In this document: piece after piece, positions 1,909-50,381 of the stretch | How the letters are laid out: the number at the start of each line of letters is the position of its first letter | Numbering within the stretch: position 1 is the first letter of the stretch | From: a virus | Lineage: Duplodnaviria > Caudoviricetes | Virus record (IMG/VR): IMGVR_UViG_3300049828_000292 | Location: 5,349 to 69,348 of that record | DNA: 64,000 nucleotides | Reading direction: 5' to 3' (one strand) | The notes under the pieces: model-generated | Told to the model about the DNA's origin: nothing | Databases searched by the model: none | Seen by the model: the letters and a program-made list of their open reading frames with translations, nothing else | Translations under genes and position numbers: made by a program

Positions 1909-1928
1909 TTGCCCCACATGCCCAGGGG

Positions 1929-1937
1929 TGTGGATAA
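1929..1937 (-). promoter_or_regulatory. perfect DnaA box (TTATCCACA)
   Basis: Plus strand TGTGGATAA is the exact reverse complement of the R-type consensus. Confidence 0.7.
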
Positions 1938-1949
1938 TCCGCTGTGAAT

Positions 1950-1965
1950 TGTTTCATGTGGAACA
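1950..1965. promoter_or_regulatory. bacterial chromosomal-type parS site
   Basis: TGTTTCATGTGGAACA; reverse complement TGTTCCACATGAAACA is one mismatch from TGTTCCACGTGAAACA. Confidence 0.7.
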
Positions 1966-1998
1966 TCGACTCAAGTGTCTGATTTCTAAGGAGCACCT

Positions 1999-2526
1999 AT
2001 GGCTGCCACCCCTGAAAAGGCCGGCGCGGACAAGGTCAAGGGCAGGCCAGGTCGCCCCAGCAAGTTCACCGAGGCGATCGCCGCTGAAATCTGCAAGCGC
2101 ATGTCAGAGGGCGAAACCCTGCGCGCTATCTGCCGCGATGAGCACATGCCAGCCTGGCAGACCGTGTACGACTGGATGAGCGACGACCGGCATGTCGAGT
2201 TTTCCAGACGGGTCGCGCGCGCGCGTGTGCTGGGGTACGACGCGATCGCGGAGGAAACGCTCGAGATCCTGGATGAGCGGCCCGAGTACGCCACGAGCGA
2301 GGGTGGCTCGAGGGTGGACACGGGCTATGTGGCCTGGCAGAAGAACCGGGCTGAGCAGCGCATGAAGCTGCTGGCCTGCTGGGACTCGAGGCGGTACGGC
2401 GTGAAGACGTCGACTGAGCTGACCGGGGCCGGTGGCGGGCCGATCGCCGTGGCAGCTACGCTGCAGGCTGCCCCTGACCTGGAGCTGGTGCGGCAGAAGA
2501 TTCGCGATCGCAAGGCGGCGAAGTGA
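1999..2526 (+). CDS. terS: terminase small subunit (Sf6/P22-like)
   Basis: GRPSKFTEAIAAEICKRMSEGETLRAIC...P...TVYDW HTH pattern; upstream of terL. Confidence 0.85.
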   Translation: MAATPEKAGADKVKGRPGRPSKFTEAIAAEICKRMSEGETLRAICRDEHMPAWQTVYDWMSDDRHVEFSRRVARARVLGYDAIAEETLEILDERPEYATSEGGSRVDTGYVAWQKNRAEQRMKLLACWDSRRYGVKTSTELTGAGGGPIAVAATLQAAPDLELVRQKIRDRKAAK

Positions 2527-2798
2527 CCGTGCAGACTGCGCCGCTGCAGCTGTCGCAGCGCCTCGAGCCGCCCTGTCTCAAGCGCTTCGAGCTGGGTCGC
2601 ATGGCCGGAAACAACGGCTACCTGCTGGCGCGGCGCATCGATGGCATCGTGTTCGTGGTGGAGATGCCTGACAAGCTGGTGGCTCTGCGCGGCATCCTGG
2701 ACTGCTGCAGGCACGCCAGGGTGCTGATTGAGGAGATGGTGCGGCAGCGTCGGCTGCGCTTGCTGAACGAGCCCAGCCCCTCGAGGTGGGCGCATTGA
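2523..2798 (+). CDS. hypothetical protein between terS and terL
   Basis: ORF coupled at both ends. Confidence 0.65.
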   Translation: MTVQTAPLQLSQRLEPPCLKRFELGRMAGNNGYLLARRIDGIVFVVEMPDKLVALRGILDCCRHARVLIEEMVRQRRLRLLNEPSPSRWAH

Positions 2799-4459
2799 GC
2801 GCGGCGCCGACCGACCAGGAGCTGCGGGCCCTGATCCGCAGCCAGGTGCTGGACGCTGACTTCGACATCGTCGGCGACATCTGGGCGGACATCATCGACG
2901 CCTACGGCGTCCAGGGCGAGCGCTGCCTGGGCCTCGAGGATCGCTTCTACCTGGTGACGGTGCTGTGCGGCCGCATCGATCTGCTCCACGAGTGGCTGTA
3001 CGCGCGCTGCAGAGAAGTGGAGCGTGAGCCTGACGGCTACCTCGACCTGTGGGCGCGCGAACATGGGAAGAGCTCGCTGATCACCTTCGCGGGCTGCGTG
3101 CAGGAGATCCTGCGCGACCCGGAGATCACGATCTGCATCTTCAGTCACACCTTCGGTGTGGCGAAGGACTTCCTGAACCAGATCAAGCTGGAGTTCGAGC
3201 GCAACATCAAGCTGCAGAACCTCTACCCCGAGGTGCTGTACGCGGACCCGAAGAGCCAGGCCACGCGCTGGTCGATCGATGGCGGGATCGTGGTCAAGCG
3301 CAAGGGCAACCCGAAGGAGCCCACCTTGATGGCGAGCGGGCTGGTGGATCACATGCCCACCGGCGCTCACTTCGCACTCAGGGTCTACGACGACACGGTC
3401 ACGCCCGAGTCAGTGACGACGCCAGAGCAGATCCAGAAGACCACCAGCGCCTGGTCGCTCTCCGACAACCTGGCGGCTCGAGGGGCGGACGGTCACTCGA
3501 GGGCCTGGCACATCGGGACCAGGTACAGCTTCGCTGATACCTACCAGGCGATGCTGGACATGGGCGCGGTGAAACCGCGGATCTACCCGGCCACCGACGA
3601 CGGCACCATGACCGGGAAGCTGGTGCTCATGTCCCAGGAAGCCTGGGACAAGAAGATGACGACGCAGCTGCCGGCCATCATCGCCTGCCAGCTGCTGCTG
3701 AACCCGGCGGCCGGCAACGAGGCGACCTTCAAGTCGGAGTGGCTCCGCTATGCGGAGATCCGGCCGGCCACGCTGAACGTCTACATCATGGTCGACCCGG
3801 CTTCCGCCTCGAGGAAGAAGGGCACGGACAGCACGGCGATGGCCGTGGTCGGCATCGACGCGCAGCGCAACAAGTACCTGCTCGACGGGCATCGATGCAA
3901 GATGAACCTCAAGCAGCGCTGGGACAACATGCGCGCGCTCAGGCGCAAGTGGCTCGAGGTGCCAGGGGTCCAGATGGTGCGCGTGGGCTACGAGCGCTAC
4001 GGCATGGACAGCGACCTCGAGTATTTCGAGGAACGCATGCTCATCGACAAGGACGCGTTCGAGGTGGTGGAGCTGGCCTGGCCGCGGGAAGGCCCGGGCT
4101 CGAAGTTCGATCGCGTGCAACGGCTGGGCCCGGATTTCATGCAGGGACGCTTCTTCCTCGCTAAGCTCTGCACCCGGGAGGAGGGCGGCAAGGTGGTCGA
4201 ATACGAGACCAGCGATCAGACGCGGATGCGCGAGCTGGGACAGTCGTTCCGGATCTTCAAGCCACCGCGCCAGCGCGACCATAACAATCGCGTGTACTCG
4301 CTCAACAAGGCCTTCCTCGAGGAGTTCTTAGTCTTCCCGTTCGCGCCGCACGATGACCTGATCGACGCGACGAGCCGTATCTACGACATGGATCCAGTGC
4401 CGCCGGTGATCATCGACGAGGGCGCGCTTGAGCCTGAGACCTTCAACGACGGGGCATAG
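2786..4459 (+). CDS. terL: terminase large subunit
   Basis: Walker A-like REHGKS, YDD Walker B, RNaseH-like VDPA...DSTA and FP...HDDLIDA motifs; true start may be TTG 2795. Confidence 0.92.
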   Translation: MGALSAAPTDQELRALIRSQVLDADFDIVGDIWADIIDAYGVQGERCLGLEDRFYLVTVLCGRIDLLHEWLYARCREVEREPDGYLDLWAREHGKSSLITFAGCVQEILRDPEITICIFSHTFGVAKDFLNQIKLEFERNIKLQNLYPEVLYADPKSQATRWSIDGGIVVKRKGNPKEPTLMASGLVDHMPTGAHFALRVYDDTVTPESVTTPEQIQKTTSAWSLSDNLAARGADGHSRAWHIGTRYSFADTYQAMLDMGAVKPRIYPATDDGTMTGKLVLMSQEAWDKKMTTQLPAIIACQLLLNPAAGNEATFKSEWLRYAEIRPATLNVYIMVDPASASRKKGTDSTAMAVVGIDAQRNKYLLDGHRCKMNLKQRWDNMRALRRKWLEVPGVQMVRVGYERYGMDSDLEYFEERMLIDKDAFEVVELAWPREGPGSKFDRVQRLGPDFMQGRFFLAKLCTREEGGKVVEYETSDQTRMRELGQSFRIFKPPRQRDHNNRVYSLNKAFLEEFLVFPFAPHDDLIDATSRIYDMDPVPPVIIDEGALEPETFNDGA

Positions 4460-6936: not shown

Positions 6937-7310
6937 GCCAGATCATCCAGACCATCGGCGACAACGAGGAGCACCTCGCTGCCGAGAACCAGATCGATGC
7001 GAACGACCTGCTTCTAGCGAAGCAGATCGCCGATGTGCTGATGCGGCACTACCCGGGCCACGCCTGGCTGGTCAACGTCGACGGCAAGCAGGGCGTGGCG
7101 AACATCAAGAACGGCCTGATGAGTGGGCTGCACGGCTACCGGCTGATCCTGCCCGACGTGATCAGTTCCACCGACCTGGATCACAAGGTGATGAAGGCCG
7201 GCGGCGAGATCCTCGAGCGGTTCAATACGCCTCGGGGTCGCTTCGACGGTGAGCAGTGGGCGGGTCTGCCAGTGACGGCAGCCGGCACGCCGTTATTCCA
7301 GAAGGATTGA
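6933..7310 (+). CDS. conserved hypothetical protein upstream of portal
   Basis: ORF track; typical codon usage. Confidence 0.75.
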   Translation: MSQIIQTIGDNEEHLAAENQIDANDLLLAKQIADVLMRHYPGHAWLVNVDGKQGVANIKNGLMSGLHGYRLILPDVISSTDLDHKVMKAGGEILERFNTPRGRFDGEQWAGLPVTAAGTPLFQKD

Positions 7311-7312
7311 GC

Positions 7313-9511
7313 ATGGACGATCGCCTGAAGCCCTGGCTCGAGCTAGCACGCGACGCCTACTCCACGAGCACGACCTACTTCGACTCGAACATCCGCAGCC
7401 AGGTCGAGAAGGATCTGCGCGCGTTCCAGTCGCTGCATGCGCCGGGCTCGAAGTACCTGAGCGATGCGTACAAGGCGCGCAGCCGGATCTTCCGGCCGAA
7501 GACACGCACGGCCATCCGCAAGAATGAGGCGATCGCGGCCGAGGCCTTCTTCTCGACGAAGGACGTGGTGAGCTGCACGCCAGGCGACGAGAGCAACCCG
7601 CTGCAGCGCGCGAGTGCCCAGGTCATGCAGGCGCTGCTGCAGCATCGCTTGAGCAAGAGCATCCCCTGGTTCCACACCTGCATCGGCGCCTACCAGGACG
7701 CGATGACAGTCGGCATGGTGGCGAGCTACCAGAGCTGGAAGTACAACGAGAAGCGCGGCATCGATCAGCCTTCGATCGAGCTGATCCCGATCGAGAACAT
7801 CCGCTTCGACCAGGCCGCGGACTGGACTGATGTGGTCGACAGCTCGCCGTACCTGATCCGGCTGATGCCGATGTACGTTCGCGACGTCACGTCGCGCATG
7901 CGCACGATCGACCCGAAGACGAACCAGCCGAAGTGGTTCAAGCTCGAAGAGAACCAGATCACGAAGGCGGTGCAGGGCTACACCGACTCGATCCGCTCGG
8001 TGCGCGAGGGCAACCGGCAGGACTCGAGGGAGCCGGGGGCCGCCGCGGTCACCGCGTTCAGCGTGGTGTGGGTGCACCAGAACTTCATCCGAGTCGGCGA
8101 TGACGACTGGGTGTACTACACGCTCGGCACGCAGGACATGCTGAGCGTCCCGCAGCCGATCGAAACGATGTACTGGCATGGCCGCCGGCCGTTCGTCATC
8201 GGCAGTGCTGTGCTCGAGACTCACAAGAACTACCCGGCCTCGATCCCCCAGCTCGGCCACCAGCTGCAGACCGAGATCAACGAGATCGCGAACCAGCGCA
8301 TAGACAACGTCAAGTTCGTGCTGAACAAGCGCTACTTCGTTGCGCGCAACCGCCAGGTTGACGTGCGCTCGCTGACCAGGAACGTGCCTGGCAGTGCCAC
8401 CTTCATGCAGGACGTCGAGAAGGACGTGAAGGTGGTCGACACGCCCGACGTCAGCCGCTCGGCCTATGAGGAGCAGGACCGACTGAACGTCGACTACGAC
8501 GATGTCGTAGGGGGCTTCTCGCAGAGCAGCGTGCAGAGCAACCGCAACCTGAACGAGACCGTCGGTGGCCTCGAGCTGGTGCACTCCGATGCGTCCCAGG
8601 TGGGCGCGTACCAGCTGCGCACCTTCGTCGAGAGCTGGGTCGAGCCGGTGCTGGAGCAGCTGGTGCTGCTCGAGCAGGAGTACGAGACCGACCTCACGAT
8701 CATGAGCCTGGCCGGCACCGAGGCCGAGATCCAGAAGCTGGGCTTCGACGAGGTGACCGACGAGATGCTGACGCAGCAGCTCACGGTCGACGTCAACGTG
8801 GGCATCGGCGCGACGAGCCCGGCGAAGAAGGTCTCGCAGTTCCTGTTCGCGATGCGCTCGCTCAAAGAGATGCTGATGGACGGGGTGCTCGACACCTACG
8901 GCCTCGACGTGGCCGAGGTGGTCAAGGAAATCTTCGGCAACCTGGGCTACCGCGACGGCACGCGCTTCTTCCAGTGGGACGAAGAGGATCCGACGGTCGC
9001 CGTGCTGAAGAAGAAGCTCGACGAGCTGCAGAAGGCGGCTGACGCGAAGATGCCGCCGGCGCTGCTGCAGAAGACGCTCGACAAGATGGATGCCGAGATC
9101 CGCTTCCTGGAAGCCAGGAAGGTGGGCCAGGGTGTGGACAGCGCCTACAGCGCGATGCAGGGTGCCGAGGTCATTGCCGCCATCCCGGCGGTCGCTCCGG
9201 TGGCCGACGAGATCATGCGCGGCGCGGGCTACATCAACCCGACGCCGCCCGGGATCGACCCGAACTTCCCGATCCTGCCCGAGGCCGAGGCCGCGATCGC
9301 GCACGGCAAGGTGGGCTTGCCTGGCACGGGGCTGAGCTTCCAGGCCCCTGGCGGGCCCGAGGAGGAGGCTGTGGGCGCGCAAGGCGGGGCGATGGGGCAT
9401 TCCCCGAACCCGATGAACCCGATGCCGCCACCGGGCCCTGAGAGCCCTGGTGCGGGCCGCCTGGCCGGGATCCAGACCCAGCGGCCAGATGAGGACGAGG
9501 TGGAAGATTGA
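7313..9511 (+). CDS. portal protein (P22-like)
   Basis: Position and size; QLQTEINEIANQRIDNVK and DVNVGIG patterns; coiled-coil plus Pro-rich tail; start re-called at ATG 7313. Confidence 0.85.
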   Translation: MDDRLKPWLELARDAYSTSTTYFDSNIRSQVEKDLRAFQSLHAPGSKYLSDAYKARSRIFRPKTRTAIRKNEAIAAEAFFSTKDVVSCTPGDESNPLQRASAQVMQALLQHRLSKSIPWFHTCIGAYQDAMTVGMVASYQSWKYNEKRGIDQPSIELIPIENIRFDQAADWTDVVDSSPYLIRLMPMYVRDVTSRMRTIDPKTNQPKWFKLEENQITKAVQGYTDSIRSVREGNRQDSREPGAAAVTAFSVVWVHQNFIRVGDDDWVYYTLGTQDMLSVPQPIETMYWHGRRPFVIGSAVLETHKNYPASIPQLGHQLQTEINEIANQRIDNVKFVLNKRYFVARNRQVDVRSLTRNVPGSATFMQDVEKDVKVVDTPDVSRSAYEEQDRLNVDYDDVVGGFSQSSVQSNRNLNETVGGLELVHSDASQVGAYQLRTFVESWVEPVLEQLVLLEQEYETDLTIMSLAGTEAEIQKLGFDEVTDEMLTQQLTVDVNVGIGATSPAKKVSQFLFAMRSLKEMLMDGVLDTYGLDVAEVVKEIFGNLGYRDGTRFFQWDEEDPTVAVLKKKLDELQKAADAKMPPALLQKTLDKMDAEIRFLEARKVGQGVDSAYSAMQGAEVIAAIPAVAPVADEIMRGAGYINPTPPGIDPNFPILPEAEAAIAHGKVGLPGTGLSFQAPGGPEEEAVGAQGGAMGHSPNPMNPMPPPGPESPGAGRLAGIQTQRPDEDEVED

Positions 9512-46073: not shown

Positions 46074-46325
46074 TTAGACCTCCGGGTCAACCGGGTCGGG
46101 TTGCAGCGGCAGCTCAGCCTGCGGCGTGTCGCCCTCCTCGATGATCGTCACCTTCGGCAGAAGACGAACGAGATCGCCCTGCTCCGCGTAACGGGAAGAT
46201 CCGCCGAGGTGCATCACGGCCGTACGCAGCGCCCCGGCGGGGCTCTTCGCATTGACCAGTTGCTCGATGACGTCGGTGCCGTTCGGCGAGAACCGAACGA
46301 GGTAGATGCGCTTCGCTGCTGCCAT
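46074..46325 (-). CDS. hypothetical protein
   Basis: ORF track; TAATG coupling to recT. Confidence 0.7.
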   Translation of the reverse strand: MAAAKRIYLVRFSPNGTDVIEQLVNAKSPAGALRTAVMHLGGSSRYAEQGDLVRLLPKVTIIEEGDTPQAELPLQPDPVDPEV

Positions 46326-47263
46326 TACTGCTTCTCCTGTGGTTGCTGCTGGTTGACTGCGGGAACTGCGACTGTGTCTGGGATCTGTGCCGGGTCAAGC
46401 GTCGGCGACGGCGCGTTCTCTAAGGCCGGCGGATCGACCGGGCGCTCAGCGTCGGGGTGCTCCGCGTGCAACTCCCCCACGGCGCCTCCCGACATCTGCG
46501 TGAAGCCCATCGCCTGGTTGTCAGAGTCGACGAGCTTGTCGACCTCGGCCGTGTGCGGCAGCTGCTTGTAGATGCGCTTGATCACGCTCTTCACTGCCAT
46601 CTCACCAGGCCAGGTCGACCAGGGCCCCTTCTCCGCGCTCTTGCTGGCGTTCTTCACGCTGTCGAGATCGTGCCTGCCCATCACCTCGAGCTTCGGCAGC
46701 GAGCTGCCCTTCAGCCGCACCACGCAGTACGCGGCGATGATCTGGCCGCGCTCGCCCTCGCCGAGGTAAGGCTCATGTTCGAGCTTGACGTCGAGCCCGC
46801 GCGAGAACAGGAAGCGGTCCTTCTCGTAGACCGGAGCGGCGTCCAGGTACTCGAGGAGCGAGGTCTCCCACAGCTTCTTGATGAGCCCGCCCGACATCGG
46901 CAGGTACTGCACTGCCGGCACCCACACGTCGCCACCAGGCCGCTTCTGCTTCGTGCTGTAGATGTTGAACACAGCCTCGCGACCATCGGGCATCAGCCCG
47001 TCATGCGCTGCCTTCATGCACGCCAGGAGCAGCGATCGGCGATCGGCATCGAGCAGGGCTGGCGTCTGCTGCACGGCCGTCAGGACGACGCGGATGAACG
47101 TGTCGACCAGCTTGTCGCTGCCCAGCAAGACCTTCAGATCGGTGCGCATCTGCGGCCCGCTGAAGTAGTTGCGGAACTTCTCGTACGGCGTGATCTCGCG
47201 CGCCGGCGCAGCGGCGACGGCGGTGGTCATGCCCAGCTTCTCCTTCAATTTCTCGGTGCTCAT
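46325..47263 (-). CDS. recT: RecT-family single-strand annealing protein
   Basis: SLLLACMKAA.DGL.PDG.EA, QYLPM..GLIK, VYEKD.F, W.TWPGEMA.KSVIKR..KQLP motifs. Confidence 0.9.
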   Translation of the reverse strand: MSTEKLKEKLGMTTAVAAAPAREITPYEKFRNYFSGPQMRTDLKVLLGSDKLVDTFIRVVLTAVQQTPALLDADRRSLLLACMKAAHDGLMPDGREAVFNIYSTKQKRPGGDVWVPAVQYLPMSGGLIKKLWETSLLEYLDAAPVYEKDRFLFSRGLDVKLEHEPYLGEGERGQIIAAYCVVRLKGSSLPKLEVMGRHDLDSVKNASKSAEKGPWSTWPGEMAVKSVIKRIYKQLPHTAEVDKLVDSDNQAMGFTQMSGGAVGELHAEHPDAERPVDPPALENAPSPTLDPAQIPDTVAVPAVNQQQPQEKQ

Positions 47264-48273
47264 TCTTTCCCTTTCAGCAGGAAGCGCCTGAACTCGATCG
47301 TCTTCGTGCAGGCCTTGTACACATCCGGGTAGTTCGTCTTGACCAGGTCGTTGTCGAGGCGCTTCTGCGCCGACCCCTTCCAGGTCGCCAGCTCGTTGCC
47401 CTCGAGGTCGACGAGCGAATTGCTGGCGCCCATCGCGCGCTTGATCAGGAACTCCATCCCTTCCTGGGCGGCGGTGAGCAGCTTCAGCTCAGCGTTAATC
47501 GTGCGCAGCGAGCGGACGTGGGCGAGCGAGTCTGGAGTGCCGACCGTGATCGAGCCGTTGTCCTTCGGGAAGATGCGCGTGACATCGTCCGCGTTCTTCG
47601 GCTCCGGGATCCGCGGCGTCCCATCTCGAGTCGGCCGGATGTACAGCTCCCAGAACTGGATCGCCTTGTCGCGCATCATGGAGATCAGCGCCTCGTCGCG
47701 CTCGACCCGGTAGAGCACCAGGTTGTCCGCCCCGAAGAGGGCGGCAACGATCGTGCGCCGGCGGCCGGTCACGCCCAGGCCCCACTGCGCCTGCGCCAGG
47801 TACTCGAGCGGCATCTCGTCGCTGCCGTAGTTGCCCCAGGATCCAGACATGAACGGGTGGACGGTCTTGATCTCGCCGTTCTCGTTCTCCACTGCGAGCC
47901 AGTCTTCGATCTCGCCCTCGGCGTTCTCGACGCGCAGCGTGCCGCGCCACTCGAAGTCGACCTCGGCGGCGAAGTACGGGATCTCCGGATCAACGTAGCG
48001 GTTCGGTTGAGCGTCGGTCGAGCGAGCTGTGATCTCGATATGGGGTTGCTCGTCGCCGATCATCTCGAGAACCACTGGCTCGAGCCGCTTGCCTCGCTTC
48101 CAGCGCTTCTCCACCTCTGGCTTCACGATCTGAAGCTGACCTTCGGGCCAGCCGACCATGTCGTAGTACAGCTGTACGGGCGTCTTCCACTTGCTGATGC
48201 CCAGGATCGCGGAGATCGCCGACCCCCCGATGAACTGCTTGCGGTCATACTGCTCTGCGGGGATCAGGTTCAT
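47260..48273 (-). CDS. YqaJ-like viral recombinase exonuclease
   Basis: R..FIGGSAISAILGISKWKTP..LY, G..LEP, GEIKT, Y.AQ.QW.L.VTG motifs. Confidence 0.9.
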   Translation of the reverse strand: MNLIPAEQYDRKQFIGGSAISAILGISKWKTPVQLYYDMVGWPEGQLQIVKPEVEKRWKRGKRLEPVVLEMIGDEQPHIEITARSTDAQPNRYVDPEIPYFAAEVDFEWRGTLRVENAEGEIEDWLAVENENGEIKTVHPFMSGSWGNYGSDEMPLEYLAQAQWGLGVTGRRRTIVAALFGADNLVLYRVERDEALISMMRDKAIQFWELYIRPTRDGTPRIPEPKNADDVTRIFPKDNGSITVGTPDSLAHVRSLRTINAELKLLTAAQEGMEFLIKRAMGASNSLVDLEGNELATWKGSAQKRLDNDLVKTNYPDVYKACTKTIEFRRFLLKGKE

Positions 48274-49171: not shown

Positions 49172-49579
49172 GTGGCCGCCCGCAAGGGGCCGCCGGCCCC
49201 TGACCCCTACCCGATCTTCACGGCGCTCTTGAGGCAACTCGGAGCGCCAGCTCCCGTTCGGGAGCATCCTGTCTGTTTCGACCGCAAGTTCCGCCTGGAC
49301 TACGCCTGGCCCGATCACGGGCGTCTGGCCGTCGAGGTGGAGGGCGGCCTCTGGTCGAAGGACAGAACCCGCTTCGCTCACTCCACCCCGACAGCCATCC
49401 AGCGCGACATGGAAAAGAACAACCTGTGCGTGCTGAACGGCTGGCGGGTTCTGCGCTTCACACCCGAGCAGCTCCCAGGAGGGGTGCCGCTCATCGTTCA
49501 ATTGCTGACTGGGGAAGGAAACAAGAATGCAACGCGAGAAGCTCCACCCGGGGAAGTGGTTCCCGTTCTACTCATCTGA
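49172..49579 (+). CDS. DUF559/Vsr-like PD-(D/E)XK endonuclease
   Basis: EH.V...RKFRLDYAWP...LAVEVEGG...RD.EK.N....GWRVLRF. Confidence 0.8.
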   Translation: MAARKGPPAPDPYPIFTALLRQLGAPAPVREHPVCFDRKFRLDYAWPDHGRLAVEVEGGLWSKDRTRFAHSTPTAIQRDMEKNNLCVLNGWRVLRFTPEQLPGGVPLIVQLLTGEGNKNATREAPPGEVVPVLLI

Positions 49580-50381
49580 CTTCATCGGTGCCACGGTCGG
49601 CCTCTCTCACCAGGAGGTGACCACCTACGCCTGGATGCTGATCCTGTACTACGAGCTGGGCCCCTTCCCGGCCGACCAGGTGCGCTGCTATCGCATCGCT
49701 CGATGCGAGTCCGACGAGCAGAAGCGCACCGTCGACTTCCTGCTGGATCGCTTCTTCATCCTGGTCGATGGCGAGTGGTATCAGAAGCGCGCCGAGTCCG
49801 AGAAGGTCAAGATGGCCCAGGTCAGCCAGAAGGCCAGGGACAAGGCGAACAAGCGGTGGCACCACGATGCTGCGCCGCATGATGCTGCAGCATTGCCGCA
49901 GCATAGCCCGGGCAATGCACGGGCAATGCCAGCCACAGCCACAGCCACAACCACAGCTACAGATAAGGCCTTAAAGACTGATCCGCCTTCGGCGGATAGT
50001 CAGATCGCTATCGCGATCCGACCGGCAGAGGTGTCCGAGCGGATCAAGTCCGATGCCCCCCAGCCGCCGCCTTGCCCGTACGGCGAGCTGGTCGAGCTGT
50101 ACCACCAGAACGTGCCGACCGGAGCCCGGGTGGCTTCCCTGAACGACAGCCGCAAGGGCCACATCAACGCCAGATGGCGGCAGGTCTGGGCGGATGAGCG
50201 GTTCGATCGGGCGGGCGGGCTCGACTTCTTCCGTGAGTTCTTCGCGAGAGTCGGGGAGTCGAAGTTCCTCACCGGGCAGGTCAAGGGACGGGACGGCGCG
50301 AAGCCGTTCCAGGTCAGCCTGCCGTGGCTGATGAACCCTGAGAATTTCTTGAAGGTAATCGAAGGGAGGTACAACTCGTGA
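49527..50381 (+). CDS. DUF1376 (YdaU-like) replication initiator
   Basis: WFPFY.SDFI..T..LS..E...Y..L...YY...P, FF.LVDG.W.QKR; C-terminal helical domain with WLMNPENF.KVIEG.Y. Confidence 0.8.
   Translation: MQREKLHPGKWFPFYSSDFIGATVGLSHQEVTTYAWMLILYYELGPFPADQVRCYRIARCESDEQKRTVDFLLDRFFILVDGEWYQKRAESEKVKMAQVSQKARDKANKRWHHDAAPHDAAALPQHSPGNARAMPATATATTTATDKALKTDPPSADSQIAIAIRPAEVSERIKSDAPQPPPCPYGELVELYHQNVPTGARVASLNDSRKGHINARWRQVWADERFDRAGGLDFFREFFARVGESKFLTGQVKGRDGAKPFQVSLPWLMNPENFLKVIEGRYNS
49862..49960. repeat. iteron-like repeats in the initiator gene (lambda-type ori candidate)
   Basis: GATGCTGC x2, GCATTGCC inverted against GGCAATGC x2, (G/A)CCACA tandem array. Confidence 0.55.

Follow-up and report, generated by a model that had tools for sequence, protein, structure and literature searches.

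A cassette of 70 bp placed directly before the small terminase gene (terS) of a phage carries an exact DnaA box and a 16-bp imperfect palindrome that lies one mismatch from the chromosomal parS consensus, and we propose, at a probability of roughly 0.4, that it is a phi29-like docking site for the ParB of the host, and perhaps for its DnaA, where the late operon begins. The phage is known as a linear IMG/VR virus record of 69,348 bp (IMGVR_UViG_3300049828_000292), rated ~75% complete, of which bases 5349-69348 were analysed as one stretch of 64,000 nucleotides, referred to here as the window and numbered from its first base. The proposal draws on the two motifs and their uniqueness in the record, on the purifying selection of the cassette, on a parS-like pattern of substitution and on the recurrence of the arrangement in an unrelated phage lineage. 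Binding by ParB and DnaA, together with every consequence that would follow from it, is what we infer from these observations.

Two host-type motifs lie before terS

Between a small open reading frame (ORF) encoding a helix-turn-helix (HTH) protein and terS there is a gap of 90 bp (1909-1998) with 49% G+C (51% A+T), in a record of ~65% G+C. Rereading the sequence confirmed that an exact DnaA box, the 9-mer TGTGAATTG and a one-mismatch parS fall within 37 bp here, as a preliminary description of this DNA had reported (Table 1). The first base of the DnaA box precedes that of the 16-mer by 21 bp. The latter, TGTTTCATGTGGAACA, matches 13 of the 14 defined positions of the chromosomal consensus TGTTNCACGTGNAACA, the one mismatch being C8->T, and differs at two positions from the perfect palindrome TGTTTCACGTGAAACA; one of its arms is perfect (reverse-strand TGTTCCAC) and the other carries C8->T. 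The core reads CATGTG in the window and CACGGG in the relative L031 described below, so that neither phage has the intact CACGTG core, with central CG in both arms, of a chromosomal parS. The letters of TGTGAATTG, taken in the preliminary description for a degenerate DnaA box, are there, and they make a weak one, with three mismatches to TGTGGATAA and two to TGTGNAWAA; no independent support for TGTGAATTG as a DnaA box was found.

Both motifs are rare. The parS-like site is the sole match at up to two mismatches in the window and the sole match at up to one mismatch in the entire record; a match at up to one mismatch appeared in none of 100 shuffled sequences, with 0.003 per 64 kb expected analytically. 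The exact DnaA box occurs once in the 69-kb record and is the only box at up to one mismatch in the 64 kb, and an exact box was found anywhere in the window in 6 of 100 shuffles; the chance of one falling within 40 bp of a given point is 1.4e-4 to 6e-4. For the parS-like site and the DnaA box as a pair the chance is ~4e-7 to 2e-6 per window. Set against a shuffled background, the motifs are therefore improbable by chance. The idea that the phage mimics a bacterial origin domain nevertheless proved overstated: there is one exact DnaA box, no origin-type cluster of boxes exists in the 64 kb, and the gap contains no AT-rich unwinding element and no AT-rich repeats.

The cassette is under purifying selection

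Of four closer terS contigs fetched by identity, one alone has the cassette: L031, a 2.7-kb JGI metagenome contig whose terS and large terminase (TerL) products show 60% and 77% amino acid identity to those of the window. Alignment of the two phages showed that the cassette, running from the DnaA box to the ribosome-binding site of terS (AAGGAG), is identical at 60 of 70 positions (86%) and occupies the same place before terS. Four-fold degenerate sites of TerL are 55% identical between the same two sequences, with a saturation value of 42%, and a neutral non-coding stretch would therefore be expected to be ~42% identical. Because the cassette reaches 86% against 55% at the TerL four-fold sites, it is under strong purifying selection.

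Conservation is distributed along the whole element. A left block of 24 nt, which includes the DnaA box and TGTGAAT and within which TGTGAATTG is identical, is invariant in L031, as are the arms of the palindrome; the right-hand blocks AACATCGA and TCAAGTGTCTGATT are conserved, and the conserved block extends into the N-terminal DNA-binding region of TerS, at ~85% nucleotide identity to ~2165. We read the cassette as a selected cis element of DNA, placed where the late operon with its packaging and structural genes begins. Positional conservation of both motifs, proposed as a check in the preliminary description, is found in one close relative, and the possibility raised there that the segment is an assembly chimera with host oriC DNA is excluded, because an independent metagenome contig carries the same cassette before terS.

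The cassette is known from two sequences only, the window and L031. The phage itself is a near-orphan, its best terS match among 5.8 billion proteins being 62% identical. When viral and metagenome collections were scanned for exact patterns of the cassette, nothing relevant came up, and a plasmid collection of 72,556 records held no relative. At terS and TerL loci from viral, metagenome and genome collections, no parS at up to two mismatches was found near the terminase genes; one locus, L018, does have such a match, but it lies ~2 kb downstream of terS.

Since the cassette showed no RNA structure and its sub-motifs are not repeated elsewhere in the genome, it is best described as a single DNA-level site. 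An RNA element was rejected: the cassette folds with z ~0 in both phages and without a shared structure, positions 5 and 12 of the palindrome do not covary as a hairpin would, and a search of Rfam gave no family over threshold in the cassette and one sub-threshold chance match elsewhere. A repeated operator was likewise rejected, as 11-mers of the cassette recur 38 times against 56 +/- 21 in shuffles. The motif TGTT-N8-AACA has a single occurrence in 69 kb, the half-parS GTTNCAC shows no enrichment, with 19 occurrences where 25 were expected, and two similar 12-mers upstream correspond to start-codon contexts on the minus strand. Judged by eye, parS is a better fit than a site for LexA (CTGT-N8-ACAG, with 2/4 in the second arm), for CRP (TGTGA-N6-TCATG) or for Fur (one GATAAT). 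Also discarded was an ORF on the minus strand with its start at an ATG inside the palindrome, since L031 has no such ATG.

The parS-like site may vary as parS sites do

The orthologous site in L031, TGTTCCACGGGAAACA, is also one mismatch from the consensus and also keeps one perfect arm (TGTTCCAC), even though the two 16-mers differ at positions 5, 8, 10 and 12. Positions 5 and 12 have changed by transitions, and the other two differences are single-arm changes in the core, a pattern drawn from these two sequences only. Mutagenesis of parSc1 of Burkholderia cenocepacia, together with natural variants, has shown that transitions at 5/12 and distal changes at 1/16 are tolerated, that positions 7/10 are permissive to a lesser degree in some species, and that a half-site retains 49% of the ParBc1 signal (PMC5450999).

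The chance that four random changes leave the site within one mismatch of the consensus is 0.002 if they may fall anywhere in the 16-mer, and 0.02-0.03 if another constraint fixes the arms and leaves just the central 8 nt to vary. This gives moderate independent support to the view that the likeness to parS is itself maintained, and the comparison supports a site that would be evolving in the manner in which real parS sites vary.

parS recurs before packaging genes in other phages

A scan of IMG/VR for perfect parS identified at least 151 sites on at least 119 contigs. Among the matches listed, terminase families were the commonest in the genes just downstream of parS (~7 of 111, compared with 2 of 99 controls), a TTWTNCACA box lay within 100 bp of 10 sites where 2.9 were expected, and a single one of the 111 parS-adjacent genes was a ParB_N gene. 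Five of the ~7 terminase genes belong to one lineage, and as several of the loci are mutually related the terminase enrichment is suggestive only.

That lineage, an abundant marine one, was sampled through the best 80 of at least 600 TerL relatives (loci L184-L263, IMG/VR), 70 of which had enough upstream DNA. In 62 of these 70 loci parS was found upstream of TerL, at 68-136 bp or, in four loci, at ~1040 bp; in L171 the ~1040-bp interval from parS to TerL holds an ORF with, by eye, a small-terminase-like sequence. The site was perfect in 60 of the 62, and no other parS-like matches were present in 486 kb. A DnaA-consensus TTWTNCACA box within 70 bp, 18-35 bp upstream of parS, accompanied 34 of 48 distinct versions. 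One variant, TGTTTCACATGAAACA, has its central change on the arm opposite to that of the window. The nearest isolates are the pelagiphages HTVC027P and HTVC023P, whose complete genomes contain no ParB_N; each carries a single one-mismatch parS, in HTVC027P at MN698241.1 16412-16427, intergenic and ~630 bp from the annotated terS, and in HTVC023P at MN698239.1 29137-29152. A divergent gene was also seen to start ~40 bp beyond the DnaA-consensus box of the marine lineage.

An unrelated contig with an Sf6-type terS, L150, has a perfect Pseudomonas-type parS, TGTTCCACGTGGAACA, 248 bp upstream of terS. A host-type parS at the head of packaging genes, often with a DnaA-like box and without a visible ParB, therefore recurs in unrelated phages.

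Several further contigs were noted in the course of these scans. On L150, four CGCGATCCA-type direct repeats precede parS and an A/T-rich tract follows it. A gokushovirus-like contig (L105, 2424-2500; Chlamy_scaf scaffold, REP_ORF2-G2P) has a perfect parS and an exact DnaA box 61 bp apart in non-coding DNA. On a phi29-like contig with a Podovirus_Gp16 packaging ATPase (L152), a perfect parS (2423-2438) stands directly before the gp16 start codon, with a TGTGGAAAA box 36 bp upstream of it. Arrays of two to five perfect parS within a few kb were present on six IMG/VR contigs (L065, L076, L095, L096, L097 and L109); they resemble genuine partition loci, whether of plasmid-like elements or of host DNA, rather than single phage sites.

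Proposed docking of host proteins at a predicted late promoter

The cassette overlaps a predicted sigma-70-like promoter, TTGCCC-18-GATAAT, which is the only match between 900 and 2600, against 0.2 expected. Its -10 hexamer lies within the DnaA box and is conserved in L031 as GATAAT, and the parS-like site would occupy about +6 to +21 of the predicted start. In L031 the upstream ORF, whose 3' end is recognisable as that of the HTH ORF in the alignment, runs through the DnaA box (..YVDNPL stop), the box lying in its last codons. The two phages are separated here by a 132-bp in-frame indel, which in the window holds the stop codon of the HTH ORF, the promoter -35 and two strong terminator-like hairpins (1877-1916; inverted repeat I9; -27.2 kcal/mol, z -3.3). 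The indel may be a terminator/promoter cartridge inserted in the window, or a deletion in L031.

On the reading favoured here, ParB dimers would nucleate on a site with one perfect and one singly changed arm, and the loading of ParB would hitch the non-integrated phage genome to the ori-domain machinery of the host. With DnaA on the -10 and ParB at +6 to +21, the terminase and late genes would be held down while lytic growth is deferred. This predicted geometry fits control of a late promoter at least as well as it fits partition. The suggestion that host ParB and DnaA are borrowed, made in the preliminary description, is partly supported: it gains from motifs that are improbable by chance, from the conservation in L031, from the phi29 precedent and from the recurrence in an unrelated lineage; what it loses comes from the core of the site, which is mismatched in both known copies, at position 8 in the window and at position 10 in L031.

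Further observations weigh against such docking. Binding of ParBc1 is abolished by all symmetrical changes except those at 1/16 and 5/12, and some single-arm parSc1 mutants are inactive in vivo (PMC5450999). There is one parS-like site in 69 kb, where phi29 has five. A cognate ParB in the host is assumed. The -35 of the promoter lies in window-specific DNA, with none visible in L031. In contig L030, whose terS is the closest (62%), another gene lies upstream and the cassette is missing, as it is from ~50 other loci fetched by terS or TerL queries; parS is likewise lacking in Bcep22-like and Ralstonia phages, which have only a RecT relative in common with the window. Within the cassette, the best-conserved parts are the flanks, which lie outside both motifs, indicating that something else also constrains the region, and conservation is lowest in the palindrome centre (4/8 identical). 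Finally, the wider scan covered ~250,000 windows, in which ~0.1-0.5 chance pairs of parS and DnaA box are expected; the chance figure alone is therefore insufficient, and independent evidence was needed.

The strongest competitor is somewhat less probable than docking: the cassette would be the operator or late promoter of the phage itself, read by the adjacent HTH protein, or a pac region read by TerS, and its likeness to parS and DnaA boxes would be coincidental. Conservation of all 70 bp, best outside the motifs, and a palindrome centre near neutral divergence speak for such an element, and the cassette travels with the HTH gene, both being present in the window and L031 and both absent from L030. 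An activator gene, a short promoter gap and terS form a familiar layout, known from the RinA-type late activators of staphylococcal phages, and a promoter-like -10 is present. The 108-aa HTH protein gave weak matches to HTH_28, HTH_7, HTH_23 and phrog_686, with sigma-70 region 4 and Mor-like similarities as leads only, and no homologue among 5.8 billion proteins; those leads would suit an activator. The continuation of the conserved block into the DNA-binding region of TerS counts in favour as well. Three coincidences are nonetheless needed: a match to parS at 13/14 positions, the exact DnaA box that begins 21 bp ahead of it, and a likeness kept after four substitutions with transitions at 5/12. 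Operators of phage regulators usually recur, whereas TGTT-N8-AACA does not. The conserved N-terminus of TerS is retained in L030, where the cassette is missing, and the direct TGTGRA repeats are not conserved, the third being lost in L031, both of which speak against pac. Moreover, an unrelated lineage has the same layout of parS before terminase, there with a perfect parS.

A true centromere, by which a low-copy plasmid prophage would use host ParA and ParB for partition with the DnaA box aiding replication, is distinctly improbable. In experiments with B. subtilis and Pseudomonas, a chromosomal parS is reported to have stabilised an otherwise unstable plasmid, provided that ParB was available. 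No integrase or serine recombinase is present in the 69 kb, and the phage has a RecT/YqaJ module of temperate style and a DUF1376 replication-associated gene; the unseen quarter of the genome could nevertheless hold an integrase, and neither a repressor nor a plasmid replication module was identified in the record. The plasmid records contained no relative, the window has one DnaA box and lacks the architecture of an origin, and the replication genes are 47 kb distant. A replicon with the chromosome's own centromere would also compete with the chromosome, and the window has a single site with a core mismatch; single-arm parSc1 mutants gave no incompatibility in vivo (PMC5450999). Partition of an episomal prophage, one of the uses first suggested, is one of several possible uses, and nothing found singles it out.

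It is very improbable that the site is read by a ParB-family protein of the phage itself (e.g. a ParB/KorB/BisD-like CTP clamp) encoded in the unassembled quarter, with nothing borrowed from the host. The incompleteness of the record leaves room for such a gene, and ParB-fold proteins are described as common in phages and mobile elements, where they can be long-range regulators, in extracts of two reports (PMC12704722, PMC12409273). A six-frame Pfam search of the whole ~75%-complete record found none of ParB_N, AAA_31, CbiA, Phage_integrase and Resolvase at E<=1. This bears out the initial statement that parA, parB and integrase are lacking as far as the record goes; extended to the phage as a whole, the statement is overstated. 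The site furthermore follows the chromosomal consensus, which ParBs encoded by mobile elements usually avoid; HTVC027P, which is complete, has a parS-like site without ParB_N, and ParB_N genes next to perfect parS in viral contigs are as rare as stated above.

Least probable of all is that captured host DNA is decaying here, or that chance alone is at work, the parS- and DnaA-like letters being functionless now: imperfect copies in both phages, a centre close to neutral divergence and the look-elsewhere effect of a very large scan are set against a cassette that is 86% identical where ~42% is expected of neutral DNA, with invariant palindrome arms and an invariant DnaA box.

Genome context

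Profile matches confirmed terS (PF20901), as named in the preliminary description, and TerL (phrog_38). A 91-aa ORF separates terS from TerL, and ~40 kb of structural genes, all on the plus strand in the ORF map, lie downstream of TerL. The RecT/YqaJ pair and the DUF1376 gene form a set typical of temperate or recombination-proficient phages, beside which no integrase or repressor was recognised in the record. Also encoded is a polyvalent protein of 2879 aa, whose domains include ART-PolyVal and LPD38. The genome is podophage-like, of the terminase-packaging kind, and at least 69 kb long. Its nearest isolates vary by gene: Burkholderia and Ralstonia phages for RecT (45-53%), Vibrio phages for the portal (40%) and roseophages for TerL (27%). 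A RecT 70% identical to that of the window, P0123, was found on a 48-kb Logan contig, which is probably the closest large relative of the phage.

Table 1. Features of the window, in order of position, with one locus of an unrelated contig
Feature	Position	Strand	Remarks
Small helix-turn-helix protein gene, 108 aa	1582..1908	+	adjoins the cassette on the upstream side
132-bp in-frame indel relative to L031	1798..1929	+	at 3' end of HTH ORF
Sigma-70-like promoter (predicted), TTGCCC-18-GATAAT	1909..1938	+	predicted start near 1945
Exact DnaA box, TGTGGATAA (TTATCCACA on minus strand)	1929..1937	-	overlaps predicted -10 hexamer
Conserved 70-bp cassette, DnaA box to terS ribosome-binding site	1929..1998	+	
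TGTGAATTG, weak DnaA-box-like 9-mer	1943..1951	+	shares first two bases of parS-like site
parS-like imperfect palindrome TGTTTCATGTGGAACA, 16 bp	1950..1965	.	33 bp before terS ATG at 1999
terS, Sf6-type small terminase	1999..2526	+	PF20901 E 1e-27; phrog_1482 E 2e-32
TerL, large terminase	2786..4459	+	phrog_38 E 3e-43
SU10-type portal	7256-9511		
RecT/YqaJ recombination pair	46325-48273	-	
DUF1376 replication-associated gene	49527-50381	+	
Contig L150: parS; terS-like ORF	parS at oriented position 1260; ORF 3362-3931	- (reverse strand)	

Implications

Persistence of phages is usually ascribed to integration or to partition genes of their own. If the proposed docking holds, a third route would exist beyond phi29 and the Bacillus phages, in which a few dozen bp recruit proteins of the host chromosome cycle, and the lack of integrase and ParAB genes would not mean that a phage is strictly lytic. 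The position immediately ahead of the packaging genes, shared by the window and the marine lineage, makes a vague idea of mimicry testable, as it links occupancy by host ParB and DnaA to late-gene expression and to the carriage of unintegrated DNA (pseudolysogeny or a carrier state). A broader proposition, which we consider unlikely, is that a host-type parS, often with a DnaA box, before the terminase or late operon is a widespread design that arose independently, in which ParB-CTP clamps and DnaA would gate late transcription or packaging and hitch a silent, non-integrated genome to the host origin. Were it true, it would amount to a general switch for lytic deferment and carriage outside the sporulating Firmicutes.

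Comparison with known systems

The virulent Bacillus phages phi29 and Nf carry sites for host Spo0J (ParB) together with Spo0A boxes (Meijer et al. 2005, as summarised in PMC2731898). In phi29 there are five Spo0J sites, used for entry of the genome into the spore, and the Spo0A boxes, located at promoters and origins, suppress the lytic cycle (PMC2731898). Borrowing of host ParB by a phage through parS is therefore of a known kind. As in phi29 and Nf, the phage studied here has no ParB of its own in a record ~75% complete, carries a candidate site for the partition protein of the host and adds a candidate site for a second host DNA-binding regulator at a predicted promoter; in the Bacillus phages, the two types of site act together to postpone lysis and to let the phage genome travel with the DNA of the host. 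The differences are considerable. phi29 has its five parS on a 19-kb protein-primed genome, with Spo0A as the partner and entrapment in a Firmicute spore as the outcome, whereas the window has one imperfect site and a DnaA box right before terS, in a phage with 65% G+C and terminase packaging, and its sites are predicted ones.

Chromosomal parS (TGTTNCACGTGAAACA; parSc1 of B. cenocepacia, parS1-4 of P. aeruginosa) resembles the site in being a 16-bp palindrome with the same arms, in the perfect half-site and, as far as the two sequences show, in its 5/12 variation. P. aeruginosa ParB and ParBc1 both bind half-sites on their own (PMC5961200 and PMC10419367, according to extracts of these reports; PMC5450999). 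The phage sites differ from chromosomal parS in their cores (CATGTG in the window, CACGGG in L031), in lying near neither oriC nor a parAB operon, and in being present as a single copy on a phage.

DnaA also acts as a transcription factor through promoter-proximal boxes, as at dnaA, nrdAB and mioC of E. coli. Like those promoters, the cassette has a single consensus box over the -10 and no origin-type cluster; unlike them, the promoter here is a predicted one, and its -35 is not kept in L031.

Alphaproteobacteria phages have been described with CtrA boxes and a proposed lytic deferment, in an extract of one report (PMC9437464). To the extent of that extract, the likeness consists in phage cis sites for a cell-cycle regulator of the host with a proposed role in timing the lytic programme, and the difference in other proteins and motifs and in the sites being those of a transcription factor only. 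A further parallel in layout is that of the HTVC027P/HTVC023P lineage, in which a canonical parS likewise occupies the non-coding gap before the packaging genes and is in most cases preceded, at 18-35 bp, by a DnaA-consensus box; this lineage differs in its unrelated terminase (Terminase_6C-type), in its G+C content (44-54%) and in having no similarity to the cassette outside the motifs.

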